Counted from the first letter of the stretch, positions 8,633 to 60,211 are shown. The stretch: DNA of 64,000 bases from Brasilonema angustatum HA4187-MV1 (GCA_019359695.1 JAHHGV010000004.1:98031-162030); one strand, 5' to 3'. A program made the numbers and translations. The notes: generated from the sequence alone by a model not told the origin.

Positions 8633-10228
8633 TCAGTTCGTTCCCGAAATCCCGTTGCCGAGAATTTGAATTTTAGTTCCAGGATAGTAGAATTGGAGAA
8701 TTTTCTGATTCTCCCAACCTAGTTGAGCGAGATTTTGAGCACCTACTTGACTCAAGCCAACTCCATGTCCTAAACCGCCACCAACAAAGGCATATCCCCA
8801 TAGTTCTGATTCACCTTTATTTAAGGGTTGTAAGTAAAACAGTGTGCTCACAGGAGCGGCAAAGGCACTGCGAACCTCGTCTTTATGTAAAGAAAAGGTG
8901 CCAATATCTGTTTTGACATCAAGTTTAAGAATGCGTCCGCTCTTGCTTCTCTCTACAACTTTCATATCTCTGATACTTTTGAACTTTGCGTAGGGACTGT
9001 TTTTCACTTTCAGAAATTTTTGTAAATCCTTGGTAATATCTTTCAAGCTAGATTCCTTACGCCAACGGAACAAGTCTTTCTGGCTTTCGTTAAATCCGAT
9101 TTTGAGACTGATAAACCGTTGAAATTGGTTTTCATCCGCTAAATTCTGCCCAGACAAGTTCCATACATTATCGCTCGGAGCATCTATGATGGGCTGCAGA
9201 TAAGGACGATCATCACCATTCCAGACATCGCTAAAAGAAGCAGTGACACCGCCAGTCGTAGAAGAATATAGGGCATCTACAAGATTGTTTCTGTATGTGA
9301 GAACCATACCCCGCGTTGTTGCGATCGCCCGATCTGTGTTCGGTGTCACTCCACTCAACCCATAATACACCTGGCAGTGAGTATCTGCAGATAATTGATA
9401 CCCATCTATTGCAAATCTATGTAAATTTCGCAGGGCATAAGTCCGGGCCAGAACCGCTTGTGCTTCCATTGCTGCAGTTGGGGCTGAAGCACCAATTTCA
9501 TACGGCACTACTCCACGCAAGTATGTTTCTAAAGGCACTTCGTTAATGAGAGTATAAGTACCGTAAGCATTTGGCTGCAACTTCATCCGTCCAGCGTAAA
9601 GATGTGCTTTCTCTGGTTTTTTAGTTTCGTTGACACGAATCAAATTTTTATCGCTACTAATTTCCAAATTATCTAAGTTGTAGCGTTTACCATTCAATTG
9701 CCAAGTGACTCGCGGTACACTTTGTAAAACTTGGCTATCTACAAAAGCAGTCTTCTGAACTGCAGATTCTACAGTCGAAAGAAGCAAACGTCTGAGTAAG
9801 GGAGTGTTATACACATCGCGCTTGGCCCAAACTTGCCAGCGTTCTGGTTGGGCTATTTCTACCTCTATTCCCTTATCACGCCAGTGTTTGGCACTGTCTT
9901 CGGCTGTTTCGTAAGTGCGGTAAGTGCCCAGCACAACCCTTTCCTTGACGACTGCTACCGGTAAAGCTTGCATCAAGACTTCCAGTTTCACTGGGTTGGT
10001 GGTCACTACGGTTTCCTGACGCTTACCATCTTGAAATTTCAGCCTCAAGCGATCGCCTTTGGTAGGTTCTAATTCTAACTGTTCTGTGGAATTATCTCCA
10101 AATCGCTGCACTATGCCAATCCTGATTTCCACATCTTTTGTGCTGCTAGCAGGACCAGAGGCTCCTGTCAGACCTAATAAACAAAATGTGGTCAGTACGG
10201 TGTAAGAAATACGCCAGATAATTTTCAT
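8633..10228 (-). CDS. SpoIID/LytB-domain secreted protein (cell-wall amidase-enhancer family)
   Basis: Signal peptide followed by a C-terminal SpoIID-type block YAFVGGGLGHGVGLSQVGAQNLA. Confidence 0.7.
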   Translation of the reverse strand: MKIIWRISYTVLTTFCLLGLTGASGPASSTKDVEIRIGIVQRFGDNSTEQLELEPTKGDRLRLKFQDGKRQETVVTTNPVKLEVLMQALPVAVVKERVVLGTYRTYETAEDSAKHWRDKGIEVEIAQPERWQVWAKRDVYNTPLLRRLLLSTVESAVQKTAFVDSQVLQSVPRVTWQLNGKRYNLDNLEISSDKNLIRVNETKKPEKAHLYAGRMKLQPNAYGTYTLINEVPLETYLRGVVPYEIGASAPTAAMEAQAVLARTYALRNLHRFAIDGYQLSADTHCQVYYGLSGVTPNTDRAIATTRGMVLTYRNNLVDALYSSTTGGVTASFSDVWNGDDRPYLQPIIDAPSDNVWNLSGQNLADENQFQRFISLKIGFNESQKDLFRWRKESSLKDITKDLQKFLKVKNSPYAKFKSIRDMKVVERSKSGRILKLDVKTDIGTFSLHKDEVRSAFAAPVSTLFYLQPLNKGESELWGYAFVGGGLGHGVGLSQVGAQNLAQLGWENQKILQFYYPGTKIQILGNGISGTN

Positions 10229-21600: not shown

Positions 21601-21823
21601 TGGAGAAGTTTGTTAATAATAATTGAAAGGCAAATGCCATCAATACACCAGTCACTAATGCGACTAAAAATTTCGGATTAGAAAAGACAAGCGTAGCCTG
21701 TTCTGGATTTACAAGTTCCGGATTTGCTGGGATTGGTACTGCTCCAAGTTGGTTCCACAGCAAACCCAACGTCATTTCCACACTTTTAAACATGTTATCT
21801 CCTTGATTACAACTTAAGTACAC
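18632..21823 (-). CDS. Large membrane-anchored hypothetical protein (1063 aa) with about 6 tandem ~95-aa coiled-coil repeats
   Basis: N-terminal multi-TM region and C-terminal TM. Repeats of the form EYLRNTNKEELNPEGIKRDFRTLLEDRQAGFEALKGRFSQFDRDTLVKLLSQRQDLSEEQ... The true start may be the internal MFKSVEM. Confidence 0.6.
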   Translation of the reverse strand: MYLSCNQGDNMFKSVEMTLGLLWNQLGAVPIPANPELVNPEQATLVFSNPKFLVALVTGVLMAFAFQLLLTNFSIAVGISSLGRGDGSDDSEGLGGTIRKVETAAGLWAVVTATIALFGASFLAVKLSLVESALIGGIIGVVIWSTYFSLITWFGSRAVGSLIGSVVSTATSGFQGLVGTATTAVGANVAKNQMVSSAEEITAAVRRELTSGFDADSIKNTVQKSLAGVQLPQLDIKEIRSQFDKLLKDADLESVADSDLLKNIDRQTFVDLISSRTDLSKEDTNRLVDQLQGAWNQAAQGQNPTEQVINLLNSATPEELKPEQLGQQLQQLASAAGSKINPSGGIVKQGVELGLGAALPAVLKKVDFSQIDIEKIKPLLQQLGGKVKQIDVDKITEQLQKLKDQATEQAGQLGSSVASKSPSSKSNTIKADVEEYIQNSLPWDFNSLTIKDEFKQVIYDENANPGTVKRELEELKLEYFANLLSQREDISEAKVKEIAEQMESIRTEVLETVNQADATEKSQNLRTRLEDYLRSTGKAELNPEGIEQDLTKLLEDPEAGVEDLSQRFSDIDRDSLVKLLAAREDINEEEANNIVGQLERTRDNVLNRAKELQEQTKAKADELRQKVEEYLRNTNKEELNPEGIKRDFRTLLEDRQAGFEALKGRFSQFDRDTLVKLLSQRQDLSEEQINQNIDSLLAVRDNVLQAPQKVAGKAKEQYEQTTTAIGEYLRNTNLEELNPEGIQQDLQKLLADPKDGANALRDRLSQVDRETLVKLLTQRGDLSEEQVNRTIDSFQQGIDKIVKAPQRLANRTTQKVQDFEANLENYLRNTNKDELNPEGIKRDLQLLLSSPRAGVGTLSDRLAKFDRSTIVALLSGREDISEEEANRIVDQIESVRNSVVEQYEQVQQKVQSVIDGATLKVRDYLNSLERPELNYESIQQDFAKLFDDPQAGFESLRDRLGQFDRDTLVAVLSSRKDISEEQANQIIDRIEAARDNVLHQAERIQKETQKRLNAIKDQAQKQAVETKKAVAGAAWWLFNTAFLSLAASAIAGVIAVKGLSFLG

Positions 21824-27958: not shown

Positions 27959-28666
27959 TTGCTAAAACAGAAAAGTATGAATAAACGCCTGATTAAACGC
28001 CTGATTAAACGAATTATTTTTCCATCAATCGCTTTTTTTGTTGGATTTTTTATCACGCTTACTCATGTTGCTGCACAAGAAGTGCCATCTAAGTTGCAAC
28101 AAGACAACAACCTGTCTCAACCTAATGGGCAACCAGACAACTTCTTTAACTTCCATTTTTGGATCTTTGTTGTATTTTTTTTGATCGCTATTTTTTGCCT
28201 AGCTAATTTCATCAAAAATCGACACTGTCCTCAATGCAAAACGTTCAACCTTAAACGGACTCAACAAGTTTTAGTTCCAGCAACCACTAGTTATTCAGGA
28301 AGGCGCAGGGTAATCTGCCACTGTCAAAACTGTTCTTACCATCACGAGTATGAACAAAACATTCCAGTAATTAGCAATGATTACAGTGGCGGTGGCGGCA
28401 ATGATTACGGTGGTACTAGTAGCAATAATGATACTAATGTTACTACCAATGATTACGGTAGCTGTGGCGGCAATGATTACGGTGGCGGTGGCGGCAATGA
28501 TTACGGTGGTACTAGTAGCAATAATAATACTAATGTTACTACCAATGATTACGGTAGCTGTGGCGGCAATGATTACGGTGGCGGTGGCGGCAATGATTAC
28601 GGTAGCTGTGGCGGCAATGATTACAGTGGCGGTGGCGGTGATGGCGGTAGTTGTGGCGGTGGCTGA
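27959..28666 (+). CDS. Membrane protein with a C4 zinc-ribbon (CPQC...CHCQNC) and a C-terminal Gly-rich NDYGG(G) tandem-repeat tail
   Basis: One TM helix. ~120-bp DNA tandem duplication at 28370-28660 encodes the NDYGG repeats. Confidence 0.5.
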   Translation: MLKQKSMNKRLIKRLIKRIIFPSIAFFVGFFITLTHVAAQEVPSKLQQDNNLSQPNGQPDNFFNFHFWIFVVFFLIAIFCLANFIKNRHCPQCKTFNLKRTQQVLVPATTSYSGRRRVICHCQNCSYHHEYEQNIPVISNDYSGGGGNDYGGTSSNNDTNVTTNDYGSCGGNDYGGGGGNDYGGTSSNNNTNVTTNDYGSCGGNDYGGGGGNDYGSCGGNDYSGGGGDGGSCGGG

Positions 28667-28697
28667 AATAGTCTCCTACTTTTTATCGGAAGAAAAG

Positions 28698-28760
28698 TCA
28701 ATTGTAAAGTTCTGTAACAAGATAGATAATTTTGTTCCACTCCAACTGAAAAACATATAG
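28698..28760 (+). repeat. Copy 2 of the duplicated 63-nt element, directly upstream of the nfeD-like gene
   Basis: See 27601-27663. The hairpin is retained with one G-C to G-U change and one mismatch. Confidence 0.55.
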
Positions 28761-28789: not shown

Positions 28790-29110
28790 ATGAAGAGCTT
28801 AATCCTGATAATTGCGGGAATTGCAGTTGCTGTGGGAATTATCGGTGGTGTATTAATAGTTGGATTAATTTCTCTCCAACGACGACGCCAAGTAGTAGAT
28901 AGCTTGGTACGTAGTGATAATATCATCGGTTGTTTTGGAACGGTAGAAATTCCTTTGAATGACAACAGTCCTGGAAAGGTACGTGTTAATCTTAAAGGTT
29001 CTTTAGTAGATTTTGTTGCCTTTACTGACGAAACTCAACAACTTCATCAAGGTGACCGTGTTGTTGTTGTTAGCATGAAGGGCAATAAAGTATGGGTGGT
29101 ATCTGTGTAG
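28790..29110 (+). CDS. NfeD-like short membrane protein with C-terminal OB-fold (YuaF/YqiJ type)
   Basis: 106 aa. N-terminal TM helix then a beta-rich C-terminus (KVRVNLKGSLVDFVAFTDE...GDRVVVVSMKGNKVWV). Canonical partner of flotillins. Confidence 0.55.
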   Translation: MKSLILIIAGIAVAVGIIGGVLIVGLISLQRRRQVVDSLVRSDNIIGCFGTVEIPLNDNSPGKVRVNLKGSLVDFVAFTDETQQLHQGDRVVVVSMKGNKVWVVSV

Positions 29111-29193
29111 AGAGTGAGGTAACTTGAGGCAAAATAACACAAAAGACCACGCACTAAAAACAACAATTAATCACTAATGACTAACTACTAACT

Positions 29194-30534
29194 ATGAAAT
29201 TTCAGCAAAACATAGCGACGGTGCCAGTAGCACAAATTAATATTGACACACCTACAAACAAGAACAACAATGGTGTTGAAGGATTACTTTTTAGCAGTAT
29301 CCCCATTGCACTTTCTATCTTTAGCGCTGTTATATTTGTATGGTTCGTTAAATCTTTTTTGTGTATCTGCAAACCCAATGAAGTATTGGTTCTTTCTGGA
29401 CGTAGGTGGCGTACTCAGGATGGACAAGAAGTCGGTTATCGAGTGCTATTAGGTGGACGGGCTATTCGTATTCCGATTGTGGAAACTGTTAAGCGTATGG
29501 ATGTCACCACTATGCCGGTACGGGTGGAGGTACGGAATGCTTACGCCAAAGGAGGAACACCTTTAAATATCCAAGCAATTGCCAATGTGAAAATTTCCAC
29601 AGATCCAGGAGTTGTGGGTAATGCTATTGAACGCTTTTTGGATCGCGATCGCTCAGAATTAACTCGTGTTTCTCGCGAAACTCTAGAAGGTTATCTGCGG
29701 GGTGTCGTCGCCACCCTCACACCTGAAGAACTCAATGAAGATCGCCTCAGTTTTGCCCACCGTATCGCCTCTGATGTTAGCCGTGACCTTACAAAACTAG
29801 GATTACAACTCGACACCCTGAAAATTCAAAGTGTTTCTGATGATGTAGATTATCTCAAATCTTGGGGACGCAAGCAAATTGCTCTTGTTGTCAAAAATGC
29901 GGAAATTGCTGAATCAAATGCGATCGCCCAAGCAGAACAAATAGAAGCCCAATGTGAGGAACACGCCCAAGTCGCCAAAACCCAAGACAGAATTATTGTG
30001 CTGGAGAAAGAAAACGAACTCCGCACAATCAAGGCAAAGCTAGGACAAAAAGCCCGCTGTGAAGAAGAAATTACCACAGCTGTTGCTCAAGAAAAGAAGG
30101 CAAAAGCTGAACAAGTTCTGCAAGCATTACGTTCAGAATTAGAACGCTTGCGCTTACAAGCAGATGAAATTCTCCCAGCCCAAGCCGAACGCCAAGCCCA
30201 AGAACTCCGCGCCAGAGGGGAAGCCGCTTCTTTGGAAGAAAATGCTAAAGCCGCAGCTTTAGTAAACGATATTCTCTCCCAAGTTTGGCAGCAAACTGGA
30301 ACAGATGCTTCCAAATTATTCCTAATCCAACAAATTGAAACTGTACTCCAAGAAGCAGTGCAGATTCCCAAGCGTATTCAACTCAAGAAAGTCAACGTGA
30401 TTGACAACGGTGATGGAAAATCTTTAGCCAGCTTAGTCAACGTTTATCCCGAAATTGTATTTCAGTTCCTAGAAAGCGTCAATCAAACCCTTGGTATTGA
30501 TGTCACAGGAACTCTCAATCAAGGAAAGGACTAA
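29194..30534 (+). CDS. Flotillin-like SPFH/band-7 protein (FloT/YuaG-like)
   Basis: N-terminal TM, SPFH core (EVLVLSGRRW...GYRVLLGGRAIRIPIVETVKRMDV...RNAYAKGGTPLNIQAIANVKI), then a long EA-rich coiled-coil flotillin tail. Confidence 0.75.
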   Translation: MKFQQNIATVPVAQINIDTPTNKNNNGVEGLLFSSIPIALSIFSAVIFVWFVKSFLCICKPNEVLVLSGRRWRTQDGQEVGYRVLLGGRAIRIPIVETVKRMDVTTMPVRVEVRNAYAKGGTPLNIQAIANVKISTDPGVVGNAIERFLDRDRSELTRVSRETLEGYLRGVVATLTPEELNEDRLSFAHRIASDVSRDLTKLGLQLDTLKIQSVSDDVDYLKSWGRKQIALVVKNAEIAESNAIAQAEQIEAQCEEHAQVAKTQDRIIVLEKENELRTIKAKLGQKARCEEEITTAVAQEKKAKAEQVLQALRSELERLRLQADEILPAQAERQAQELRARGEAASLEENAKAAALVNDILSQVWQQTGTDASKLFLIQQIETVLQEAVQIPKRIQLKKVNVIDNGDGKSLASLVNVYPEIVFQFLESVNQTLGIDVTGTLNQGKD

Positions 30535-30576
30535 GGTTTTAAGTCACTCACTATTTCCAAACTCCCGAGGTTTTTT

Positions 30577-31287
30577 ATGAACACCTTAAAAACTTTTGCT
30601 ATTACCATGATTGCGGTGACTTTGGGAACGCAGAACCCATCTGCAGCATTGGTTAACAAACCAGTATCCCATCATAATGTAGTGTTTATAGCACCTAACC
30701 AGCCAGATCTCATTGCCAACGATGTTACTTATTCCACAGCACAGGGCGATACTCAAATTTGGATGCCAGGGCGTATAACCGAGAAGAAACCCCAACAATT
30801 AAGTTCTGAAAGTCCAACAACTAAAACGGTATATTTCATCCTCTACGTAGACTTACCTAAAGAAACTGAATATCTATCTACTTTAGGGCTTCGGAAAATT
30901 ATGCAAGATGAATTCCGAAAGAAATTCTCTGGTAAACAAGAGTTGTCTGGTAAAGTCGTTCGGAGTACCGATCTTGTGATTGAGGGGTATCCTGGTACAG
31001 AGTTTGTGGTGCAACATTCTAATGGAGCCTTTGGACAATATCAGTCTTTTATAGTTAAACGACGCATGTACTTTCTTGGAGCTGTAGCACCTGGTGAATT
31101 AACTACAGAAACAGCTAATTTCTTCGATTCTTTCCGAGTATATCCAGAGCAGATTCGTTATCCCGTTGAACGCACCCCAGCGAAACAAGTTATGGGTAAA
31201 GTCCCCCAACTCACATCTTTTGGGTACAAAAGCAAAGGAACGACAATTCCTGAAATGAGTGATTGCCTACGGCAGAGCTACGCTTAA
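30577..31287 (+). CDS. Secreted hypothetical protein (signal peptide) wedged between the two flotillin genes
   Basis: MNTLKTFAITMIAVTLGTQNPSAA signal peptide. No recognisable domain. Confidence 0.5.
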   Translation: MNTLKTFAITMIAVTLGTQNPSAALVNKPVSHHNVVFIAPNQPDLIANDVTYSTAQGDTQIWMPGRITEKKPQQLSSESPTTKTVYFILYVDLPKETEYLSTLGLRKIMQDEFRKKFSGKQELSGKVVRSTDLVIEGYPGTEFVVQHSNGAFGQYQSFIVKRRMYFLGAVAPGELTTETANFFDSFRVYPEQIRYPVERTPAKQVMGKVPQLTSFGYKSKGTTIPEMSDCLRQSYA

Positions 31288-31364
31288 CGCCTACCCAAAG
31301 CTAATGACGTTAATTAACCTGTTTTAATGTTCTACAAATTACACTTGAATTCTGGAGAAAGATT

Positions 31365-32636
31365 ATGGAAATAATCGCTTTACTACTGGGAATTTTTGGT
31401 ACTGGAACTGCCGCCGGTTGGTGGGTGATTCGTAACTTATACTATATTTGTCAACCAAGTGAAGTACTCATCTTCGCTGGCAGTCGCACTTCTCTTGGTG
31501 ATGGGAGTTCGGTTGGATACCGTTTAGTGAAAGGAGGTAGTAGGATTCAAACCCCGCTATTAGAGAAAACTTTCCGCATGGATTTGACAAACATGATTAT
31601 TGAGTTGCGAGTATCGAATGCATACTCAAAAGGCGGAATTCCCCTGACAGTTGAAGGAGTCGCAAATATCAAAATTGCTGGAGAAGAACCGACAATTTAC
31701 AATGCAATTGAGCGACTCTTGGGTAAAAGCCGCAAAGATATCGAACAGTTGGCAAAGGAGACGTTAGAGGGAAATCTGCGAGGAGTATTGGCAAACCTGA
31801 CGCCAGAACAGGTAAACGAAGATAAAATAGCCTTCGCCAAAACCCTGCTTGAAGAAGCTGAAGACGATTTGGAAAAGCTGGGATTGGTACTAGACAACTT
31901 GCAAATTAAGAATATCTTCGATGAGGTGCGCTATCTTGATTCAATTGGACGCAAGCAGCAGGCAGAATTGTTGCGAGATGCGCGTATAGGAGAAGCCCAA
32001 GCTAAAGCCGAGGCAATAATTAAAGTTTCAGAAAATAACCGTATTACCAAACTCAAACAAATTGAACGGGATTTAGAAATTGCTAAAGCAGACGCAGAAC
32101 GCAGAGTTAAAGACGCGCTGACAAAGCGGACTGCTATGATCGCAGAGGTAGAAGCGGTTGTTAATGCCCAAGTAGCAAAGGTGCAGGCAGAAGTTGGGGT
32201 GCAAACCGAACGCATCAAACAGGTTGAAAATCAGTTACAAGCTGATGTGGTTGCACCAGCAGAAGCAGAATCCCAACGGGCGATCGCCAAAGCAAAAGGA
32301 GATGCAGCCCGCATTGTTGAACAGGGTAAAGCCCAAGCAGCCGGGACGCAGTATCTAGCCGAATCTTGGCAAAACGCTGGTGCATCTGCCCGAGAAATCT
32401 TCATCTTCCAAAAATTAGAACCATTGTTGCGAATGTTGGCTGCAGGAGTCCCAGAGGTACAGGTAGACAATTTGACTGTCATTGATGCTACAAATGGTGG
32501 TAGTGTTCCCAAAATGGCGTCATTCTTAGAGCAGTTACGGCAGACAACTGGTGTCGATGTTACAAAGGTTATCAATCAATTTAAGTCTGAAGACAAAAAT
32601 AGCAAGTACGAAATCAGATCACATCTGGAAAAGTAG
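31365..32636 (+). CDS. Flotillin-like SPFH/band-7 protein, second paralogue
   Basis: Same architecture as 29194-30534 (EVLIFAGSRT...GYRLVKGGSRIQTPLLEKTFRMDL...SNAYSKGGIPLTVEGVANIKI). Confidence 0.75.
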   Translation: MEIIALLLGIFGTGTAAGWWVIRNLYYICQPSEVLIFAGSRTSLGDGSSVGYRLVKGGSRIQTPLLEKTFRMDLTNMIIELRVSNAYSKGGIPLTVEGVANIKIAGEEPTIYNAIERLLGKSRKDIEQLAKETLEGNLRGVLANLTPEQVNEDKIAFAKTLLEEAEDDLEKLGLVLDNLQIKNIFDEVRYLDSIGRKQQAELLRDARIGEAQAKAEAIIKVSENNRITKLKQIERDLEIAKADAERRVKDALTKRTAMIAEVEAVVNAQVAKVQAEVGVQTERIKQVENQLQADVVAPAEAESQRAIAKAKGDAARIVEQGKAQAAGTQYLAESWQNAGASAREIFIFQKLEPLLRMLAAGVPEVQVDNLTVIDATNGGSVPKMASFLEQLRQTTGVDVTKVINQFKSEDKNSKYEIRSHLEK

Positions 32637-32660
32637 CCATAAGACTTGTAGGGGTAAGTT

Positions 32661-33383
32661 ATGCCAAGACTATTGCCAGGTAACCCTGAACAATCAAATC
32701 AGACTGACGATGACAGTATGGATGAATTAGAAGTACAAATCCTTCAACTTGTGAAACAAACCTGTCAGCATCCGAGAGGTAGTATTGAACGTCAAAAAGG
32801 ATTGCACAAACTTTTTTTACTAATTCAAAAAACAGGTAAACTGTTGCGGGGTACGGGCGTACCTGATGCGGAGGAAGCACTACAAAAAACCTGGCTATAT
32901 TTTTGCTGCAATCTTTGTGAGGCTTCTACCGCCAAGAATCCCTACAATCCAGAAAAAGGTAGTATCATAACATGGCTCAACGGGTATTTGAAGTACAGGT
33001 TAGAAGATAGTCGTAGGGTTGGTAGTAATAATACAATTCATCCCATACAAGATCAAAATGGTGAAGAGCTAGATCCAGTAAATTTAATTCCAGCACGATC
33101 GCAAGCACCACCCATATTACAAGAAATCCAGGAATGGTTAAAAAAAGAAGCCAATAATTTGCGTCGCATCCACGTACAAAATCGTCCAGATATCAACTGT
33201 CTAGTTTTGATAGAACGTCGCTTACCACCCGAAACTCCCTGGCAAGATTTATCTCAAGAGTTCGGCGTATCCATATCCACCCTCAGCAGGTTCTATCAAC
33301 GTGAGTGTTTTCCCCGCCTTCTCAATTTTGGCAAATCCCAAGGTTATTTTGACAGCGAAGGTTATTTTAATATCGAGTCCTAA
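32661..33383 (+). CDS. Sigma-70-family-like protein with a region-4-type HTH at the C-terminus
   Basis: CLVLIERRLPPETPWQDLSQEFGVSISTLSRFYQRECFPRL reads as a sigma region 4. The N-terminal part is only weakly region-2-like. Confidence 0.4.
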   Translation: MPRLLPGNPEQSNQTDDDSMDELEVQILQLVKQTCQHPRGSIERQKGLHKLFLLIQKTGKLLRGTGVPDAEEALQKTWLYFCCNLCEASTAKNPYNPEKGSIITWLNGYLKYRLEDSRRVGSNNTIHPIQDQNGEELDPVNLIPARSQAPPILQEIQEWLKKEANNLRRIHVQNRPDINCLVLIERRLPPETPWQDLSQEFGVSISTLSRFYQRECFPRLLNFGKSQGYFDSEGYFNIES

Positions 33384-33400
33384 TTTTTGAATTAACGGCT

Positions 33401-34558
33401 ATGAGTTACTCCACCCAACAGCAAATCATCTCTATTCCCATTCCGGCGAAATTTCGAGAAACTGCTCTGGAATTTGCCCAAGAACAACCAACTCAACAAA
33501 AAGCTAAACAAGTGTATGTAAATACTCTAGCTGTACTAGTGGTCAAGAGCTACTTAGAAATGCTGGATATTCCGACTGAATTAGAAGCCAGTTATAGCTG
33601 GAATCAATACGGGCGCTTGATGGCAGATGTTGCAGATTTATTGCTTACCGGAGTAGGACGTTTAGAATGTAGAGCAATCAGGACAGGCGATCGCCTTTGT
33701 TATGTTCCTCCTGATGTTTGGGACAATCGTATTGGTTATGTTGTTGTAGAACTAAATCAAACCTGTAAAGAAGGAAAAATCAGGGGATTTTTACCTGATA
33801 TTCAAACATCACAAATTGACATTGAAGAGTTGCAACCATTGGAAAGATTAATAGAATCTTCCCATCTTGTGCATTTGCGGCAATGGCTAGAAGGTATCTA
33901 CAAATCCCAATGGCAAAGTATTGAAGAATTATCCTGTCAAAGAAGTCCTCAAGTAGCCTTTCGTTTTAGACGGACAGGAGGATTTCAGTTAAATACATCA
34001 CAAGAAGTATGGAAAGTAATTGATCAATTATATCCCCATCGCAGTTGGGAAAACAACTTACCATTAGAACTTTTAGAAAAAATGTCTGGTAATCAAGTTG
34101 AAGACGTAGAATCACCTGAGGATAACATTAACTCTGTTAGTGTTACCGATGTACTTGCTCAGCTTTTAAGAACAAGCGAAGATGAAGAAAAGCGTTGGAA
34201 GCTTGCAGAAACTTTGTGGACGATAGAACCAAAGCACTCTGCTATCAGTGCTAGACGCATCATGGATTTAGGGATGCAACTCGCCAATAATCCAGTGGCT
34301 TTAATGGTAGCAATTTTATCTAAACCTGACAAAACTGTTGCTGTTCTGTTGCGAGTATATCCGATAGGAAACCAGCCCTACCTACCACCAAACTTGCAAT
34401 TAGCTGGATTGTATGAAAATGGACAGCCGTTTCTTGAAGTCAAAGCCAGAGAAGTTGATAATTACATCCAATTAAAATTTTGTGCAGAATTCGGTGAAAG
34501 ATTCGGAGTTCAGGTTAGTATAAATAATGCAAGCATTACGGAACACTTTATCATTTAG
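33401..34558 (+). CDS. DUF1822-like cyanobacterial protein
   Basis: 385 aa. The family name is from memory of cyanobacterial sigma-70/DUF1822/CHAT gene trios. No catalytic motif seen. Confidence 0.35.
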   Translation: MSYSTQQQIISIPIPAKFRETALEFAQEQPTQQKAKQVYVNTLAVLVVKSYLEMLDIPTELEASYSWNQYGRLMADVADLLLTGVGRLECRAIRTGDRLCYVPPDVWDNRIGYVVVELNQTCKEGKIRGFLPDIQTSQIDIEELQPLERLIESSHLVHLRQWLEGIYKSQWQSIEELSCQRSPQVAFRFRRTGGFQLNTSQEVWKVIDQLYPHRSWENNLPLELLEKMSGNQVEDVESPEDNINSVSVTDVLAQLLRTSEDEEKRWKLAETLWTIEPKHSAISARRIMDLGMQLANNPVALMVAILSKPDKTVAVLLRVYPIGNQPYLPPNLQLAGLYENGQPFLEVKAREVDNYIQLKFCAEFGERFGVQVSINNASITEHFII

Positions 34559-34586
34559 CTAAGTCAATGAGTACAGGGTAAGAAAA

Positions 34587-37097
34587 GTGGACATGCGGGT
34601 TATCTTCGGGATTGAACAAGGCAGTTTTGAGAAAGGATTTCCTGTCAGAGTTAGAATTGGCGAAGAAGGTAGACCTGATTATGACGAATTTTCTGGTAGG
34701 TTACCGCCCGCATTGGCAGTTAAGGAAAACTACGAAAATTGGCAAAGAATTTATCGTAACTTACCAGCCAATTGGTTAATCACCCTTCCTGAGAGTCAAA
34801 TAACAAATGTATCTACTTTAGAAGATTGTAATCAAGCTGCTCAAAAGTTTCAATCCAGTTTCAACGAATGGTTAAATCAACCATCAGTACGAAAATTAGA
34901 GCGACAATTTTTACTAAAAATTGGTAATTTACAGGATGTGCGCTTTATTTTGCAAACGCAAGAATCTTTGCTACAGCGACTTCCTTGGCATTTATGGGAT
35001 CTTTTCAGTCATCCCAAACCGGAAATTATAGTAAGTTCGGAGTACGAACCATCTAAAAAGAAGTTAAAAACTCCTGTTAAAATCCTCGCCGTTTTGGGCG
35101 ACAATCAAGGTATCAATATTACACAAGATTTGTCAGCCCTAGAAAACAATTTACCAGGCGCAATAATTGAATCGTTAATAGAACCATCATCTCAAGAACT
35201 GAGAGATAAATTATGGACGAAATCTTGGGATATTTTATTTTTTGCCGGACACAGTTGTAGCCAACAAGATGATAGTTCGGGAGAGATTAAAATTAATGCC
35301 AACGAGAGTTTACCGTTGGAACATCTACGCCATAGTCTCAGACATGCTGTCCAAAAAGGATTAAAACTAGCAATTTTTAACTCTTGCGATGGACTTGGAC
35401 TGGCACGTAATTTGGCTGATGCACGCATTCCCTATACAATTGTCATGCGCGAGCCTGTTCCCGATATAGTAGCACAACATTTTTTGGAATATTTTCTCAC
35501 GGCATTTGCGGCTGGTGAATCTCTATATGCATCTGTACAACAAGCTCGTGCACGCTTGCAAGAAGAATGGGAAAATCAGTATCCTTGTGCTTCGTGGCTA
35601 CCCGTTATTTATCAAAATACCGCAGCAGCAGAACTGAAATATCCCCGACAGCATCAACAGCAAAGTTGGAAAAAAGTTGCTTTGCAAACAGCTATTGTTG
35701 TCGGTGCAATAGCAAGTTTTGGTGTTATTTCATGGCGTGTTATTGATGAATTTCAATCCCGTGCTCGGTTTAGTTCTGGCGATAAAATATTAGTGAGGAC
35801 ATTCACAACTTCCTATAAAAAAGAGGGCGTACAGGCGTTTCGACAGGAAAATTACAACCTAGCAATCAGTAAGTTTGAAAAGTCTTTGCGGCAGTATCCT
35901 AACGATCCAGAAACGTTGATATATCTAAATAATGCCAAGATTGCTCAAAAACCAGCACTGACAATTGGTGTTCCCGTTCCCATTGCCACTAACCCCAATG
36001 TTGCCCAAGAAATTCTCCGGGGAGTGGCACAAGCTCAACAAGAGATAAATCATCAAGGTGGTATGAATGGGAAGTTATTGAAAGTTGAAATCGCAAACGA
36101 TGATAACAATCCTGCTATTGCTGTAAAGGTTGCTGATAGATTTGTGCAAGAAAAAGATATATTAGCAGTTGTTGGGCATAACAGCAGCGATGCTAGCCTT
36201 CCAGCCTCTGAGAAATATCAGGCGGGAAAATTGGTGATGATTTCACCAACCAGTAGTTCCACAAGATTAACAGATCGCTCAGATCGCACCGACGGTAACT
36301 ATATCTATCGGACAGTTATCAGCTTTACGACAATTGCAGATGCTCTGGCGCAATATACTAAAACTACTGGCAAAAACAGAATTGGTACCTGTAATGATTC
36401 TAACGCAGCAGACCAGTCATTTAAAAATGATTTTGAGAAGGCAATTGAGCAAAAAAAAATTCAATTAATTAATATTGATTGCGATTTTGCGTCCAAGAAT
36501 TTCCAGCCAAAAACTATTATAAAAAATGCAAAAGAACAAGGTGTAAATGCCATACTTCTGAACCCTCAAGTAAACAGAATGGATAGAGCGATTGCCGTAG
36601 GCAGAGCTACGCTTAACGCACTCGCCAAAGCAAATCAAGGTCAAATTACGTTATTAGGAAACCCCAGTTTACAAACCAAAGATACTCTGGCTGCTGGCGA
36701 TGCTGTTAACGGGATGGTGATAGCAGTTCCTTGGGACGCCACCCTCTCCCCCGACAAAAACTTTGTCCAAAATGCATACAAATTATGGGGTGATACAGAC
36801 TTAGTTACCTGGCGTACAGCTACCGCCTTTGATGCTACCAAAGTCATTGCAGCAGCACTTAAACAAAAGGATACTAGAGACGGAGTACAACAAGCGTTAT
36901 CTGGTACTTTTTCCCTACAGGGAGCAACAGGTGCAATTAAGTTTTTACCTTCAGGCGATCGCGTTGATAATGCTGTATTAATACAAGTCAAACCCAATCC
37001 CAAAGCTTCCACTGGCTACAGCTTTGAACCAATAAAACCCTATGCAAAGCCGCATCAGTCTAGGGGACAAAATTTTAGTTCAAGACAACCTCAGTAA
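34587..37097 (+). CDS. CHAT protease domain - TM helix - TPR-like linker - periplasmic LivJ-type ligand-binding domain fusion protein
   Basis: Caspase-like His/Cys dyad context (ILFFAGHS ... LAIFNSCDGLG). TM VALQTAIVVGAIASFGVISW. C-terminal type-I PBP block (ALTIGVPVPIATNP...ILAVVGHNSSDASLP...KLVMISPTSSS). Confidence 0.65.
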   Translation: MDMRVIFGIEQGSFEKGFPVRVRIGEEGRPDYDEFSGRLPPALAVKENYENWQRIYRNLPANWLITLPESQITNVSTLEDCNQAAQKFQSSFNEWLNQPSVRKLERQFLLKIGNLQDVRFILQTQESLLQRLPWHLWDLFSHPKPEIIVSSEYEPSKKKLKTPVKILAVLGDNQGINITQDLSALENNLPGAIIESLIEPSSQELRDKLWTKSWDILFFAGHSCSQQDDSSGEIKINANESLPLEHLRHSLRHAVQKGLKLAIFNSCDGLGLARNLADARIPYTIVMREPVPDIVAQHFLEYFLTAFAAGESLYASVQQARARLQEEWENQYPCASWLPVIYQNTAAAELKYPRQHQQQSWKKVALQTAIVVGAIASFGVISWRVIDEFQSRARFSSGDKILVRTFTTSYKKEGVQAFRQENYNLAISKFEKSLRQYPNDPETLIYLNNAKIAQKPALTIGVPVPIATNPNVAQEILRGVAQAQQEINHQGGMNGKLLKVEIANDDNNPAIAVKVADRFVQEKDILAVVGHNSSDASLPASEKYQAGKLVMISPTSSSTRLTDRSDRTDGNYIYRTVISFTTIADALAQYTKTTGKNRIGTCNDSNAADQSFKNDFEKAIEQKKIQLINIDCDFASKNFQPKTIIKNAKEQGVNAILLNPQVNRMDRAIAVGRATLNALAKANQGQITLLGNPSLQTKDTLAAGDAVNGMVIAVPWDATLSPDKNFVQNAYKLWGDTDLVTWRTATAFDATKVIAAALKQKDTRDGVQQALSGTFSLQGATGAIKFLPSGDRVDNAVLIQVKPNPKASTGYSFEPIKPYAKPHQSRGQNFSSRQPQ

Positions 37098-37149: not shown

Positions 37150-37560
37150 ATAGCTAGCCCCTAAGGGGGCGCTGCGCAAACGCTGCTGCGCTCCGCGCAG
37201 ATCGCACATTTTCAAGCATCTGTATGATGGGCGATTGCGCAGAGCGCAGACGCAATCATGCGTATCGCACTTGTTGACCCCATACCAAAGGATACCGAAG
37301 GGAGCTACCCCTTTTCAGTCAGCTTCCTACCGACTGACTGCGTACTCTACTTGCTTCAGCCAGGATTTTGCTATCCGGTTAGCTGCTCAAAAGGTACTCA
37401 TACCAATTGTCCATGATAGTTTGCGCGGCGTAGCCATAGATGCACTTAATATTTATGAAACGAACCGCCTTAGCGCAGCGTGTCCGCAGGACATAGACGA
37501 GCCAGCGCCGTGGGCAAGTCTCCCGACTTGAGGCGACTGGCGTCGCCAAGGACGCCAAGA
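37150..37560. repeat. GC-rich SDR/MITE-like repeat cluster (GCTAGCCCCTAAGGGGGC core, GCGCAG-rich arms, ggcgactggcgtcgcc palindrome)
   Basis: Read directly. ORF 37235-37531 lies inside it and is treated as spurious. Confidence 0.45.
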
Positions 37561-37833
37561 ATTAAAGAGTAAGTATTAAGTGCAAGTTTACAGAGAAATG
37601 GTATCAATCAGTTCATCGGGCTCATTGACAAGTTTGGCATAAATGATTTCCGAATTTGCCAACAGTGTCTGGGCTATTTTTACCCCATTAGCGACAATGA
37701 GTGACTACTTCAATTGCGTGGGTGCGGCTATACCCCGTGGTAAGTGCATAAGTTAATTTCACTTACACCTAATAAAGAATCAAAGGGTATCTATTATCCT
37801 TACTCAAACTCAACCTTCATTAAGGAACATTAT

Positions 37834-39531
37834 ATGAGTGGATTTGGTCACGGTTCTGTCGGGACACGGGAACAAGAATTTACGACTCTACTGGAATTAA
37901 GAAAAGAAGGCTATCCAACACATAAACTTGTGGAACTTGCCGCAAATATAAAGGCAGAAGTTGATACGGTTAAAGATGGACCAGATCCTGAAGAAAACCT
38001 TTGGGTACCAGCAGGCTATACCTACTTTGGTCAATTCATCGATCACGATCTGACCTTCGATAACACATCATCACTGAACCCAGCAGATGCGGGACAACAA
38101 GATCGTTTACCTAGCAACTTGCGTACGCCACGCTTTGATTTGGATTCGTTATATGGCGACGGACCGGATGCTCAGCCTTTCTTATATGCTGAGGACGGTG
38201 CCACTTTGCTGTTCAAAGATAGTGATAAGAATCAATTAAGTGTTGAGCAAGCAACTGAAGACTTACTGCGTAGCCCCAACGGTCGTGCTATTATTGGCGA
38301 CAAGCGCAATGATGAAAACTCTATCATCAGCCAAATCCATTTGGCATTTGTAAAATATCACAATGCAGTGGTTCAAAAGCTTAAGAAAGATGATCCACAA
38401 TTAACTGGTACTGCCCTATTTAATCAAGCACGCAATGAGGTGCGCTGGACTTATCAAAAGCTGGTGATCGAAGACTTTTTACCGCGCATTGTCAAAGCTG
38501 AAGTGCTTGCTGACCTTAAGGAAGCCACAACACGTGAAAAGCGGCAAAAACTCTACGCCCTTTATACTAAAGACAAGCGTCAAAACTTGCCCCGCGAGTT
38601 TGTGGTGGCGGCTTACCGCTTTGGACACTCAGGAGTAAGGACAGGTTATCGGCTCAATACAAACAAACGCTTGAGTATTTTCCCACCCAGCATGCCACCC
38701 AAGAACCCAGAAGATGACGACAAAGACAGTTTGCTGGGATTTGATCCACTACCGAAAACCCATGTCATTGATGACTGGGGTCGCTTTTTTCCAAATACGA
38801 AACCTGGCGTTTTCCCCACCGAACCTCGAGACCAGGCCGCAGATGAAAAACCGCGTCCTGAAGTCCGGCTACAATTTGCTTACAAAATTGATCCAACCTT
38901 GGTAGATCCACTTGGTGTTTTGCCACCTCCGGTGCTACCAACCAGCGCGACGGTTGGGGGATTGGTTAAGGAAGTTGAGGACACAATAAGCCCTGATAAG
39001 TTACCAGACAAAGAGGTTAATCCTCCGCGCCCTTCGTTAGCCCTCCTCAACTTACTTCGTGGCAACACATATAAAGTGCAAGGCGGACAAGCGATCGCAA
39101 ATGTACTCAAGAAAAATTGTTTTCCGGTTAAAATACTAGAACCAAAGTACCTATCTACGAGAAAAGCGGTTGAAGGAAAGAATGGGGAGGCATTGTTCAA
39201 ATTTGAAGAAATCGATTCAACTCTTCAAACAGATACTCCTCTGTGGTTTTATATCTTGGCTGAGGCTCAAGCCTCAGTGGTGGATGCAATCAAATTAGAT
39301 AAAGATGGCACGTTCAACGAAGAACAACTACTCAATGGAGGTGGAGCCAAAACCCAGCTAGGCTGGGTGGGCGGTCGGATTGTAGCCGAGGTGTTTTATG
39401 GTCTGTTGGATTCGGATAGTGAGTCCTACTTCAATGCAGCACCTGAACACTGGAAGCCCATCCTAGGAGGCAATGGAGAAGTCATCTTCGCTAACCTTCT
39501 CAAGTTCGCCGGACTAACTATCGCAAATTAA
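37834..39531 (+). CDS. Animal-type haem peroxidase/dioxygenase superfamily protein
   Basis: Distal-His signature FGQFIDHDLTF and proximal-His block AAYRFGHS. LGWVGGRIVAEVFYGLL near the C-terminus. Start set at ATG 37834 (AAGGA 8 nt upstream) inside ORF 37744-39531. Confidence 0.75.
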   Translation: MSGFGHGSVGTREQEFTTLLELRKEGYPTHKLVELAANIKAEVDTVKDGPDPEENLWVPAGYTYFGQFIDHDLTFDNTSSLNPADAGQQDRLPSNLRTPRFDLDSLYGDGPDAQPFLYAEDGATLLFKDSDKNQLSVEQATEDLLRSPNGRAIIGDKRNDENSIISQIHLAFVKYHNAVVQKLKKDDPQLTGTALFNQARNEVRWTYQKLVIEDFLPRIVKAEVLADLKEATTREKRQKLYALYTKDKRQNLPREFVVAAYRFGHSGVRTGYRLNTNKRLSIFPPSMPPKNPEDDDKDSLLGFDPLPKTHVIDDWGRFFPNTKPGVFPTEPRDQAADEKPRPEVRLQFAYKIDPTLVDPLGVLPPPVLPTSATVGGLVKEVEDTISPDKLPDKEVNPPRPSLALLNLLRGNTYKVQGGQAIANVLKKNCFPVKILEPKYLSTRKAVEGKNGEALFKFEEIDSTLQTDTPLWFYILAEAQASVVDAIKLDKDGTFNEEQLLNGGGAKTQLGWVGGRIVAEVFYGLLDSDSESYFNAAPEHWKPILGGNGEVIFANLLKFAGLTIAN

Positions 39532-39604
39532 GCAAGTGCGCTTTTACCGCTCATTACAGCAATTTTCCGGTAAATAGACCACAGTGATTGAACCAACAAT
39601 CATG

Positions 39605-39789
39605 CAGGCGATCGCGTTGGTAATGCTGTATTAATACAAGCCAAACCCAATTCCAAAGCTTCCACTGGCTATAGCTGGCTATAGCTTTGAACCAAAAAGA
39701 CTCTATCCAAGGCCGCATTAGTCTAGGGGACAAAATTTTAGTTCAAGATAACTCCAGTAAGCAGAAACAATTGGGTGTGCAAGCTTTTC
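39605..39789 (+). repeat. Direct repeat copy 2 (degenerate pseudo-3'-end of the CHAT-PBP gene, with an in-frame stop and a 10-nt internal duplication)
   Basis: Aligned by eye to 36952-37137. CATCAG to CATTAG change. ggctatagct duplicated. Confidence 0.7.
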
Positions 39790-39825
39790 TATAAATTTTG
39801 TTATAAAACAAAATTTATAGAAAAG
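39784..39825. repeat. 42-nt AT-rich perfect palindrome (cttttctataaattttgtt-ataa-aacaaaatttatagaaaag), followed by the GGGGTGC...GCACCCC hairpin at 39833-39858
   Basis: Read directly. Sits at the right junction of the duplicated segment, 3' of the M50 protease gene. Confidence 0.6.
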
Positions 39826-39876
39826 CATACTTGGGGTGCTTTACTTTGTTGGCACCCCAAATATATTAACAACTGT

Positions 39877-41073
39877 TTACGATTGCAGCGATTTTGCAAT
39901 AACTCCTAATTGCAAACCAGGCGGATAACTCCCTTCCTCTTTTATCCGCTTAATCTCGGCTTCAGTGATCCGCAAATTTAACTTTTGTGCTAACTCCTGC
40001 ACAATATCCCCTCGATCAATCACACCAGCGACAGCATCAGCAGGAGAAAGCACGGTGATGCGGGGTAATTGTTCATTTTCCAGCTTGTTAATCACCTCTG
40101 CTATAGGAGTTGACTCAACAACAGTGGGAATTTCTGTCAGGGGATGCACTATACTTTGCACCGTTAGGGTTTCCCATTCACTTCTTTCCACAAGGCGCAA
40201 ATCGTCTATGGAAATGATGCCCCGGTAACGTCCATCAGATTCGGCAAAATAAACTCCAGGAGTGTTAGTCTCCAAAAGGTAGGAGTCGGCGAAAGAACGC
40301 AAAGTCTGATTAGCATCGACGACCCGAAACTCACGAGTCATGGCATTAGCGGCAACCAGACTGAGTAAGGTTTCTTGTAAAATTGTTATGCGGTCATAGC
40401 TATTAGCATTACGGATACCAAACCAACCTAACAAAGCTATCCACAAACCAGTGACTAATTCCCCAGTAAAATAATCTACTGCCAGGCCTAGGGCGATCGC
40501 CCCATAACCCAAAATTTGCCCTGCTTTTGCTGCTAACCGTACCGCTTGAAAACGGTTCCCTGTTGTTTTCCACAAAGCTGCTTTTAAAACTTGTCCGCCA
40601 TCTAAAGGCAAACCAGGAATCAGGTTGAACAGTGCCAAAACTAAGTTGATTCTGCTTAAATCTCCAACCATAACGCTGGCAGGACTGTTATCAGGCAAAA
40701 CATTTACTAGCAGGCTGAGGAGGACAAACAGGACAACACTCACGAATGGTCCAGCAATTGCAACTTGAAATGCTTTTCCTGGGGTTTTGGATTCTTCTTC
40801 GATAGAAGCAATACCACCAAACAGAAACAGGGTAATCGAATTGACTTTTATACCTTGCGATCGCGCAACTAAGCTATGACCCAATTCGTGCAATAATACT
40901 GAACCAAAGAGCAGCAATGCCATCACCACTCCAGCACTCCAAGCTAGAGTCGTTCCCCATGCTTGGTAAGCGACTCCAAAGTTAAGGGTTGCCAGCCCTA
41001 AAATCACAAACCACAGAGGGTCTAAAAACAGTGGAATTCCGAATAAAGACCCGATTTTCCAATTTGTTTGCAT
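39877..41073 (-). CDS. Site-2-protease-family (M50) zinc metalloprotease with C-terminal CBS-domain pair
   Basis: HELGHSL zinc motif in a TM helix. Second metal ligand region LPLDGGQV. C-terminal tandem CBS-like segments. Confidence 0.75.
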   Translation of the reverse strand: MQTNWKIGSLFGIPLFLDPLWFVILGLATLNFGVAYQAWGTTLAWSAGVVMALLLFGSVLLHELGHSLVARSQGIKVNSITLFLFGGIASIEEESKTPGKAFQVAIAGPFVSVVLFVLLSLLVNVLPDNSPASVMVGDLSRINLVLALFNLIPGLPLDGGQVLKAALWKTTGNRFQAVRLAAKAGQILGYGAIALGLAVDYFTGELVTGLWIALLGWFGIRNANSYDRITILQETLLSLVAANAMTREFRVVDANQTLRSFADSYLLETNTPGVYFAESDGRYRGIISIDDLRLVERSEWETLTVQSIVHPLTEIPTVVESTPIAEVINKLENEQLPRITVLSPADAVAGVIDRGDIVQELAQKLNLRITEAEIKRIKEEGSYPPGLQLGVIAKSLQS

Positions 41074-60205: not shown

Positions 60206-60211
60206 TTATCC

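Follow-up and report, generated by a model that had tools for sequence, protein, structure and literature searches.

Seven genes on the plus strand of Brasilonema angustatum HA4187-MV1, situated at positions 28790-37097 of a 64,000-nucleotide stretch (GCA_019359695.1 JAHHGV010000004.1:98031-162030; below, the window, to which all coordinates refer), probably constitute two separable modules that are arranged head to tail and whose adjacency is facultative. Module A is an ordinary operon of the NfeD-flotillin-flotillin type. Module B is a trio of the type known from EACC2-caspase systems, encoding a putative sigma factor of the extracytoplasmic function (ECF) class, a DUF1822 protein and a CHAT protease that is joined through a transmembrane (TM) helix to a ligand-binding domain (the sensor-protease). 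Species-representative genomes, scanned with the sigma-like protein as anchor, yielded 397 relatives; the best 80 of these 397 form the basis of the trio counts given below, and labels such as L001 or L003 denote individual relative loci of the scan. Flotillin genes lie directly upstream of the trio in 11 of the 80 loci.

Organization of the locus

The features of the locus are as follows.

28790..29110, plus strand: NfeD-like protein (Pfam NfeD)
29194..30534, plus strand: flotillin 1 (Pfam Band_7)
30577..31287, plus strand: 236-residue protein with a signal-peptide-like N-terminus (no known family)
31365..32636, plus strand: flotillin 2 (Pfam Band_7)
32637..32717, plus strand: conserved non-coding block, probable promoter or leader of the trio (cross-genus conservation)
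32661..33383, likely start 32718, plus strand: putative ECF-like sigma-70-family protein of 240 residues (alignment, NCBI names, fold search)
33401..34558, plus strand: DUF1822 protein (Pfam)
34587..37097, plus strand: sensor-protease of 836 residues (Pfam CHAT, Peripla_BP_6)

All seven open reading frames (ORFs) are located exactly where the initial annotation had placed them, and its description of a closely packed, same-strand group is borne out by intergenic gaps of 83, 42, 77, 24, 17 and 28 nucleotides, in this order. If translation of the sigma-like protein starts at the conserved Met20 (position 32718), which according to the alignment of homologues is the likely true start, the fourth gap widens to 81 nucleotides. 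The domain calls of the initial annotation all hold as well, by Pfam matches or, for the sigma-like protein, by fold search and NCBI names. Since a six-gene core, comprising all but the gene for the 236-residue protein, recurs in 10 other genomes in which the flanking genes differ, the arrangement is not due to chance. None of the six spacers contains a terminator-like hairpin, an absence that is uninformative for cyanobacteria; the same holds for a promoter consensus scan, in which sites were no more frequent than in shuffled sequence. Over the entire window, neither Rfam nor a tRNA scan gave a match.

Linkage between the flotillin genes and the trio

The 11 flotillin-linked trios all belong to Nostocales (Brasilonema, Scytonema, a Nostocaceae metagenome-assembled genome (MAG), Nostoc parmelioides, Anabaena subtropica, Pelatocladus, Fischerella and Westiellopsis), and the remaining 69 trio loci lack flotillins. 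Viewed from the flotillin side, genes for the sigma-like, DUF1822 and CHAT proteins follow the flotillins in two of 55 metagenomic loci with enough downstream sequence and are missing from the other 53. In Anabaena sp. WFMT, the flotillin module and the trio (L010) are located on different contigs. Joint conservation of the flotillin and CHAT modules in other genomes, by which the initial annotation had proposed to judge its idea of a single system, is thus mostly absent.

Five Fischerella-type genomes display deletion scars, with the flotillin genes removed and the trio retained. In L023, a deletion fuses the start region of the NfeD gene to the 3' end of the flotillin 2 gene, and in L019, L020, L025 and L027 the flotillin 2 gene is reduced to its last ~25 codons followed by the conserved spacer; the trio is kept in all cases. 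Clean deletions have abolished the adjacency on several occasions, and it is absent from most trio loci and from most flotillin loci.

Brasilonema, a Nostocaceae MAG and the Fischerella group share a conserved non-coding block of ~45 nucleotides ahead of the sigma-like gene, and this block survives in all five flotillin-deleted genomes (L019-L027, about 9940-10003). In the window, the conserved block includes AAGACTTGTAG...GCCAAGAC at 32641-32670. Conservation of this block and its retention after deletion of the flotillin genes suggest that the trio possesses a regulatory region of its own, and the segment at 32637-32717 probably represents the promoter or leader of the trio. No conserved RNA structure was detected in the spacer between the flotillin 2 and sigma-like genes (RNAalifold -1 kcal/mol, no covariation). 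Each locus contains the pattern GAAACT-N17-CCAAGAC a single time, ahead of the sigma-like gene, and it is absent in front of the NfeD gene and of the TIGR04222 gene described below; the test is weak, as the pattern itself comes from that very site. Within the limits of this test, a shared promoter motif joining the flotillin operon to the sigma-like gene was rejected.

Several observations speak against a complete independence of the two modules. The genes share one strand with gaps of 17-83 nucleotides, and no terminator-like hairpin interrupts them. Moreover, all 11 flotillin-linked trios carry the membrane-anchored binding-domain type of sensor, and adjacency is seen with that type only. 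The Brasilonema locus has only the six-gene block in common with those of Nostoc, Anabaena subtropica, Fischerella, Westiellopsis and Pelatocladus, and the genes flanking this block in the window are not shared beyond Brasilonema and Scytonema. As the block, kept in 10-11 Nostocales genomes, outlasts the synteny of its flanks, adjacency has to be old within Nostocales. Finally, in four or five loci of other cyanobacterial groups, the corresponding place upstream is taken by a gene of the PspA/IM30 family (see below). General synteny as a cause of the adjacency was partly rejected, given that the block is shared and the flanks are not, though genes of the DUF2207 and TIGR04222 families widen the conserved neighbourhood.

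The same observations on strand, spacing, block conservation and sensor type would be expected of one integrated system, in which an NfeD/flotillin microdomain houses and gates the sensor-protease and all genes form one operon. The flotillins of Bacillus subtilis scaffold membrane signalling proteins and proteases, which fits such an arrangement. However, the two modules are unlinked in the large majority of trio and flotillin loci and reside on separate contigs in Anabaena sp. WFMT, five deletion variants have dropped the flotillins but kept the trio together with its spacer, and the conserved block ahead of the sigma-like gene points to a separate promoter for the trio. The single microdomain-organised system proposed initially is thus poorly supported and unlikely in view of mostly unlinked modules and deletion scars, and the old adjacency within Nostocales and the position of PspA/IM30 elsewhere speak for a looser functional link. 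With two separable modules, any functional tie between them is loose, for instance a common membrane-stress theme or co-regulation, and does not amount to an obligatory complex.

As a further observation, the stand-alone NfeD-flotillin-flotillin cluster of Anabaena sp. WFMT (L081:6095-14718) is located beside genes for a fusion of a Ser/Thr kinase with Peripla_BP_6 and for a NACHT/AAA_16 protein. The short L081 contig also contains ParA, ParD, PIN, integrase and transposase genes, and represents another case of a binding-domain sensor next to flotillins, here possibly on a mobile element.

Assignment of the trio to the EACC2-caspase family

In essentially every one of the 80 loci with sufficient contig, the genes for the sigma-like protein, the DUF1822 protein and the protein composed of constant domain and CHAT domain are kept in this order, confirming the cyanobacterial sigma/DUF1822/CHAT trio named in the initial annotation. 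Family clustering over the 80 loci finds the sigma-like family in 80, the DUF1822 family in 73 and the protease family in 62 loci, with the DUF1822 gene placed between the other two in 73. The binding-domain end of the sensor-protease is kept in ~40 nearer loci and replaced in remoter ones, while the constant domain and the CHAT domain persist.

This architecture corresponds to a family described, exclusively by computation, by Kaur, Iyer, Burroughs & Aravind (2021, eLife 10:e70394; PMC8195603). The proteins of this family combine a constant N-terminus, consisting of EACC2 and caspase domains, with a highly variable C-terminus that can lie outside the cell behind TM helices or consist of a small-molecule-binding domain, and the neighbouring genes encode an ECF sigma factor and DUF1822 (PMC8195603). 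It was proposed that sensing of a stimulus activates the autopeptidase, which leads to a transcriptional output via the sigma factor, and the systems were placed among counter-invader conflict systems (PMC8195603). The trio of the window shares with them the constant domain in front of the caspase, the His-Cys dyad, the variable C-terminus, the DUF1822 and sigma-like (ECF-like) neighbours and the cyanobacterial distribution. It is therefore a member of the EACC2-caspase/ECF-sigma/DUF1822 systems, namely a variant with a LivJ-type binding-domain sensor, and its constant domain would be the EACC2 domain of Kaur et al., as judged from architecture and neighbours. Accordingly, the view that the locus cannot be placed in any described system is not right for the trio, and the connection of a CHAT protease to an outside sensor, noted initially as a second oddity, is the known design of the family (PMC8195603).

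Despite this correspondence, differences can be observed. A LivJ-type (Peripla_BP_6) sensor, whether single or tandem, is not named in the text of Kaur et al. or in the accessible part of their tables. DUF1822 is regarded there as a TPR protein, whereas the model obtained here combines an alpha/beta domain with a HEAT-like segment and a beta-sandwich. Moreover, flotillin, PspA, DUF2207 and TIGR04222 neighbours are absent from that account. Literature searches found no experimental work on EACC2-caspase/ECF sigma/DUF1822 systems. These systems are numerous in multicellular cyanobacteria, with 1720 DUF1822 clusters and 397 sigma-like relatives found, and the binding-domain subtype offers a tractable entry point because it combines an invariant dyad with a recognisable ligand-binding sensor and a clear, albeit predicted, topology.

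In remoter trios without a binding domain (L036, L043, L045, L052-L078), ~4 kb downstream of the sigma-like gene, the protease gene is followed by a DUF928 gene in 18 loci, and a separate TPR-CHAT gene is found close by in 14 loci.

Domain structure of the sensor-protease

The N-terminal part of the sensor-protease is formed by the EACC2-like constant domain (34587-35096), in which conservation among 63 homologues, with identities of 29-94%, covers residues 1-170. This domain has 1349 relatives among 50%-identity representatives; among the 150 relatives listed, it mostly starts within the first few residues, and the proteins vary in length from 137 to 1556 residues. The CHAT domain follows at residues 180-337 (Pfam E 1.6e-13; 35124-35597). 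Its dyad consists of His222 (35250-35252, within FFAGHS) and Cys267 (35385-35387, within FNSCDG), both of which are 100% invariant in 64 aligned sequences. Lack of conservation of this dyad had been named in the initial annotation as evidence against a single system; the dyad proved to be present in 64 of 64.

A single hydrophobic segment at residues 363-387 (TM helix, 35673-35747) separates these domains from a TPR-like segment and the C-terminal LivJ-type binding domain (Peripla_BP_6/ANF_receptor, residues 471-797, E 5.8e-29; 35997-36977). The protein is thus predicted to have a cytoplasmic N-terminus and CHAT domain and a periplasmic binding domain. Among the relatives, forms with one and with two binding domains both occur.

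The sigma-like protein and the DUF1822 protein

The 240-residue protein has 134 homologues, all of them cyanobacterial and often named sigma-70 family sigma factors by NCBI. Its AlphaFold model, calculated from 48 sequences, shows two helical domains connected by a flexible linker with a predicted local distance difference test (pLDDT) score of 87.6 and a predicted template modelling (pTM) score of 0.47; confidence falls around residues 100-130. The 50 best Foldseek matches of this model in the PDB are nearly all sigma factors, including the ECF factors SigL, SigH, sigmaE-RseA, AlgU-MucA and SigK. An assignment as an ECF-like sigma-70-family protein is therefore supported by the predicted fold and the NCBI names. 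Three points have to be set against it. The Foldseek matches are weak (E 0.01-0.8, template modelling scores 0.2-0.4, probability up to 0.92), the protein has no Pfam or NCBIfam match at E<=0.01, including Sigma70_r2/r4, and a profile of 18 homologues did not match any sigma factor among the PDB sequences. Proof of sigma identity at the sequence level has thus failed, and the fold search is what supports it.

The DUF1822 protein matches its Pfam family over the full length (E 5.5e-88). Its model (pLDDT 78) displays a confident N-terminal alpha/beta domain (residues 1-150), followed by a low-confidence linker, a HEAT-like helical segment, a second low-confidence stretch and a C-terminal beta-sandwich. 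The linker contains the invariant residues L159, W162 and W171 as well as the conserved pair F187-R188, and the second low-confidence stretch carries R285-R/K286. Within the alpha/beta domain, D79, E89 and C90 are invariant and R91 is conserved in at least 90% of the sequences; in the model, these residues are located in neighbouring predicted strands (79-82 and 86-94).

The gap between the sigma-like and DUF1822 genes is small in most listed loci (0-78 nucleotides or overlapping, according to ORF calls), and the DUF1822 gene occupies the usual position of an anti-sigma gene. In the tables of Kaur et al., as far as these were available, relatives that NCBI assigns to the DUF1822 family are annotated as TRADD-N plus TPRs, and fusions of a helix-turn-helix (HTH) domain with TRADD-N and TPRs are also given (PMC8195603). 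Such fusions argue that the sigma-like HTH and DUF1822 act together. The DUF1822 protein is therefore a candidate sigma-binding partner, protease substrate or both, against which it has to be held that no similarity to known anti-sigma domains was found.

Proposed mechanism and comparison with other protease-sigma systems

Conserved order of the trio, an intact and invariant dyad, a single TM segment and a variable sensor end are the observations from which a mechanism may be proposed. The single-pass membrane protein would bind a small molecule outside the cell, and binding would switch on the presumably cytoplasmic CHAT protease. The activated protease could then cut itself, its DUF1822 partner, which offers F187-R188 and R285-R/K286 as candidate exposed basic sites, or both. 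By analogy to CalpL-CalpT-CalpS and Csx29-Csx30-RpoE, cleavage would free the ECF-like sigma factor and thereby reprogram transcription. We infer these steps by analogy and for a family known from computation alone, which has to be counted against the scheme.

Precedents for a route from protease via partner to ECF sigma factor are provided by CalpL/T/S (bioRxiv 10.1101/2024.05.08.593097) and by Csx29/Csx30/RpoE (PMC9825189). The type III CRISPR system CalpL-CalpT-CalpS, composed of a SAVED-Lon protease, an anti-sigma factor and a sigma factor of the ECF-like kind, shares the logic of protease, partner and sigma factor with the trio. However, its protease is of the Lon and not of the CHAT type, its SAVED domain senses intracellular cyclic tetra-adenylate (cA4), it is CRISPR-associated and no sequence relation to DUF1822 was found. 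In Craspase (type III-E), the TPR-CHAT protein Csx29 cleaves Csx30, which binds RpoE, so that proteolysis is likewise coupled to a transcriptional response. Craspase differs in being activated by guide RNA and target RNA on Cas7-11 instead of by a periplasmic binding domain and in lacking an EACC2-like domain; furthermore, none of the seven proteins of the window matches a PADLOC defence model. DdvA-DdvS of Myxococcus xanthus (PMC11506125) resembles the trio in that a single-pass membrane protein with a CHAT domain controls an ECF sigma factor. Its topology is inverted, with a periplasmic TPR-CHAT part, an incomplete dyad and a cytoplasmic zinc-binding anti-sigma domain, whereas in the sensor-protease of the window the CHAT domain is predicted to be cytoplasmic, the dyad is intact and the periplasmic part is a ligand-binding domain. 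None of the three systems is a homologue in the sense of membership.

An alternative function would be that of a conflict or programmed-cell-death system, in which the CHAT protease, upon a signal from an invader or from kin, sets free DUF1822 as a latent effector (possibly a nuclease), with a secondary role for the sigma factor. The classification of EACC2-caspase systems among counter-invader conflict systems (PMC8195603), the hypervariable sensor ends and the invariant or highly conserved residues D79, E89, C90 and R91 of DUF1822 in adjacent predicted strands are in line with this. However, a search of the seven proteins against PADLOC-DB 2.0 gave only a chance-level match (flotillin 1 versus RT_UG13b, E 0.0014), no nuclease signal was detected in DUF1822 either at the sequence level or among the 50 best Foldseek matches, and the position of the canonical Lys is taken by Arg. 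In addition, the flanks of the locus consist of housekeeping genes (transaldolase, trpF and GTP cyclohydrolase I), a periplasmic binding domain of the amino-acid type would be an odd phage sensor, and the TRADD-N and TPR annotation of related DUF1822 proteins in the accessible tables of Kaur et al. describes an adaptor, not an enzyme. We consider such a function very unlikely for this locus, and a known defence system was rejected on the basis of PADLOC.

A gene for a protein with Peptidase_M50 and CBS domains (39877-41073, minus strand) was evaluated as a further part of the system. Peptidase_M50 is the family of site-2 proteases, a class that cleaves membrane anti-sigma factors. The gene is found beside the cluster only in L001 and L003, i.e. 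in Brasilonema and Scytonema, and its position was treated as coincidental.

The NfeD-flotillin module

The NfeD-like protein matches Pfam NfeD marginally (29.5 bits at a cut-off of 29.1) and consists of an N-terminal TM helix (hydrophobic segment at residues 1-31) and an OB-fold partner-binding domain. Flotillin 1 (Band_7 E 9e-21) possesses an SPFH domain, an N-terminal membrane anchor and an Ala/Glu-rich coiled-coil tail; its orthologues from the trio-anchored locus scan are 81-98% identical. Flotillin 2 (Band_7 E 1e-22) is an SPFH paralogue of flotillin 1 with ~36% identity, has 5956 relatives at E<=1e-30, is 100% identical to a protein of the Brasilonema angustatum HA4187-MV1 MAG and is represented across cyanobacteria by orthologues with 66-97% identity. 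Hydrophobic segments are located at residues 28-61 of flotillin 1 and 3-22 of flotillin 2. With scores of 131.8 and 161.5 bits against NCBIfam FloT (NF058507), for which the equivalog cut-off is 700, both proteins are members of the flotillin family and not orthologues of FloT.

The features of a bacterial NfeD-flotillin operon are present, i.e. an SPFH protein with an N-terminal anchor and a same-strand NfeD gene 83 nucleotides upstream. In the yuaF-floT and yqeZ-floA operons of B. subtilis, an SPFH/flotillin gene is likewise preceded directly by an NfeD gene; these operons differ from the module described here, which contains two paralogous flotillins that score far below the FloT cut-off. 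Of 60 metagenomic loci, 51 have an NfeD orthologue ahead of the flotillin pair, and the flotillin module occurs without the trio in Trichormus variabilis ATCC 29413 and a Coleofasciculaceae genome. NfeD-Flot1-Flot2 is thus an autonomous, widespread and ordinary membrane-scaffold operon of cyanobacteria.

The 236-residue protein, for which no family match was obtained, is found only in the Brasilonema loci L001, L002 and L087; elsewhere, the two flotillin genes are adjacent. Its gene is thus a lineage-specific insertion of Brasilonema. A relative with 28% identity (pairwise E 1e-13) is encoded at L044:9282-9917 in an Aphanothece MAG, directly upstream of the sigma-like gene.

Membrane-related genes upstream of binding-domain trios

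The recurrent neighbourhood of genes for membrane-stress and membrane proteins around binding-domain trios is a new lead. These genes lie upstream on the same strand and form a mosaic that differs by lineage. A DUF2207 gene encoding a Gly-rich tail accompanies the trio in 11 loci; in Scytonema it is located upstream of the NfeD gene, in a set of Anabaena, Dolichospermum and Trichormus loci (e.g. L008, L012) it immediately precedes the sigma-like gene, and the DUF2207 proteins of Scytonema (L003) and Anabaena lutea (L008) share 67% identity. Membrane proteins of a TIGR04222 type with a Gly-rich tail are encoded beside the trio in 20 of the 80 loci (for example L022:5004-6494, L008:8136-8954, L018:15848-17542 and L044:7671-9062). 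They share a conserved N-terminal domain of ~200 residues (DQVWHLHLTYT), followed by a membrane region in longer forms and a Gly/Cys-rich tail; TIGR04222 itself is clear in L022 and below cut-off in L044. Since each of the two families occurs in one of 80 flotillin loci, DUF2207 and TIGR04222 were rejected as general partners of flotillins.

Outside Nostocales, in Allocoleopsis, Planktothrix, Aphanothece and Pseudanabaena, a PspA/IM30-family gene and, after it, a gene for a free paralogue of the sensor end (TM, TPR and Peripla_BP_6) precede the trio in L031, L038, L044 and L071. The PspA-linked stretches, assigned by Pfam, are as follows.

L031:2-2042, trio strand
L038:4519-6683, trio strand
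L044:5528-7638, trio strand
L071:6123-8351, trio strand
L048:161-787, trio strand

L071 contains an intervening sodium:dicarboxylate symporter gene, and L048, which is probably misbinned, has the PspA-family gene without the free binding-domain paralogue. Two of the four full-length or nearly full-length PspA scores are marginal (33.9 and 33.4 bits at a gathering threshold of 33.9).

In B. subtilis, floA, floT and pspA-ydjGHI are under the control of the ECF factor sigmaW, and PspA is anchored at the membrane by the SPFH protein YdjI (PMC8581546), which sets a precedent for an ECF factor tied to such proteins. By analogy, the trio could act as a surveillance switch for membrane and periplasm, with the NfeD/flotillin, PspA/IM30, DUF2207 and TIGR04222 genes as targets of its sigma factor. 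Besides the sigmaW precedent (PMC8581546), this is suggested by the number of loci with such genes upstream on the same strand (flotillin/NfeD 11, PspA 4-5, TIGR04222 20, DUF2207 11) and by the fact that DUF2207 and TIGR04222 follow the trio and not the flotillins. However, GAAACT-N17-CCAAGAC, the only motif scanned, occurs once per locus and not before the NfeD or TIGR04222 genes, neighbours that differ by lineage are also expected from mosaic decay of synteny, and two of the four PspA scores lie at or just below the gathering threshold. An envelope-stress regulon is therefore a doubtful, though not far-fetched, explanation. With similar reservation, the binding-domain subtype can tentatively be viewed as a cyanobacterial surveillance switch for envelope or membrane integrity, comparable to the sigmaW, Psp and Lia envelope-stress responses but gated by a caspase, and not as a generic conflict system; the lineage-specific membrane-protective neighbours may then be its output or its working partners.

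If the neighbourhood reflects function, it would link caspase-like proteolysis to bacterial membrane homeostasis and provide a regulatory context for cyanobacterial flotillins, the roles of which are poorly defined. Otherwise, the locus adds a further member to a catalogued family and lies beside a housekeeping operon.

State of the copy in the window

The following two features of the window bear on the condition of its own copy.

27959..28666, plus strand: remnant of a DUF2207-family gene (BLASTP versus the Scytonema orthologue)
37152..39875, plus strand: 2.7-kb replacement segment, outside the system (blastn versus L001)

The flotillin-linked relatives possess sensors of 1231-1246 residues with two tandem units of TPR and Peripla_BP_6. 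In the window, a 1-nucleotide insertion at ~37033 shifts the frame of the sensor relative to L001 and L003 and leaves the last ~21 residues out of frame. In a blastn comparison with L001, colinearity extends to 37151 and is regained at 39876, the second unit of TPR and binding domain being replaced by the 2.7-kb segment. This segment contains a 98-residue ORF and a gene of the animal-haem-peroxidase family (37744-39531; Pfam E 2.8e-27). A short duplicate of the junction region is left at 39604-39788.

Furthermore, the DUF2207 gene upstream of the NfeD gene has suffered a deletion of its extracellular domain. In comparison with the 357-residue protein of Scytonema (L003:5313-6386), which matches Pfam DUF2207 with an E-value of 2e-16, residues 13-43 and 51-141 of the remnant match and residues 34-214 of the L003 protein are missing (BLASTP). 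The remnant keeps a signal/TM segment, a TM segment, a zinc-ribbon-like CxxC...CxxC motif and a Gly/Asn-rich tail with GGNDYGG-type repeats. This repeat creates a spurious overlapping ORF at 28377-28760.

Owing to the damage at its C-terminal end, the copy of module B in the window may be impaired. It is conceivable, if rather questionable, that the locus as a whole is decaying in this genome and no longer works as a system, as the frameshift, the replaced second binding-domain unit and the loss of the extracellular domain of DUF2207 would suggest. However, all seven ORFs are intact, and the first binding domain is fully contained in the 815 in-frame residues of the sensor-protease. Sensors of 813-827 residues with a single binding domain occur naturally in relatives from Anabaena, Trichormus and Sphaerospermopsis, so that the truncated sensor may still work, and the frameshift may be an assembly error because the source is a MAG, in which a single-base indel can arise in this way.

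Apart from the locus, two other regions of the window were noted, both on the minus strand. The region at 18632-21823 contains an ORF of 1063 residues, the sole family signal of which is a weak, sub-threshold match to an apolipoprotein-like repeat. The region at 54521-63341 encodes a DEAD/Helicase_C protein of 1894 residues followed by ORFs of 357 and 689 residues without Pfam match, and may represent a defence-type set.

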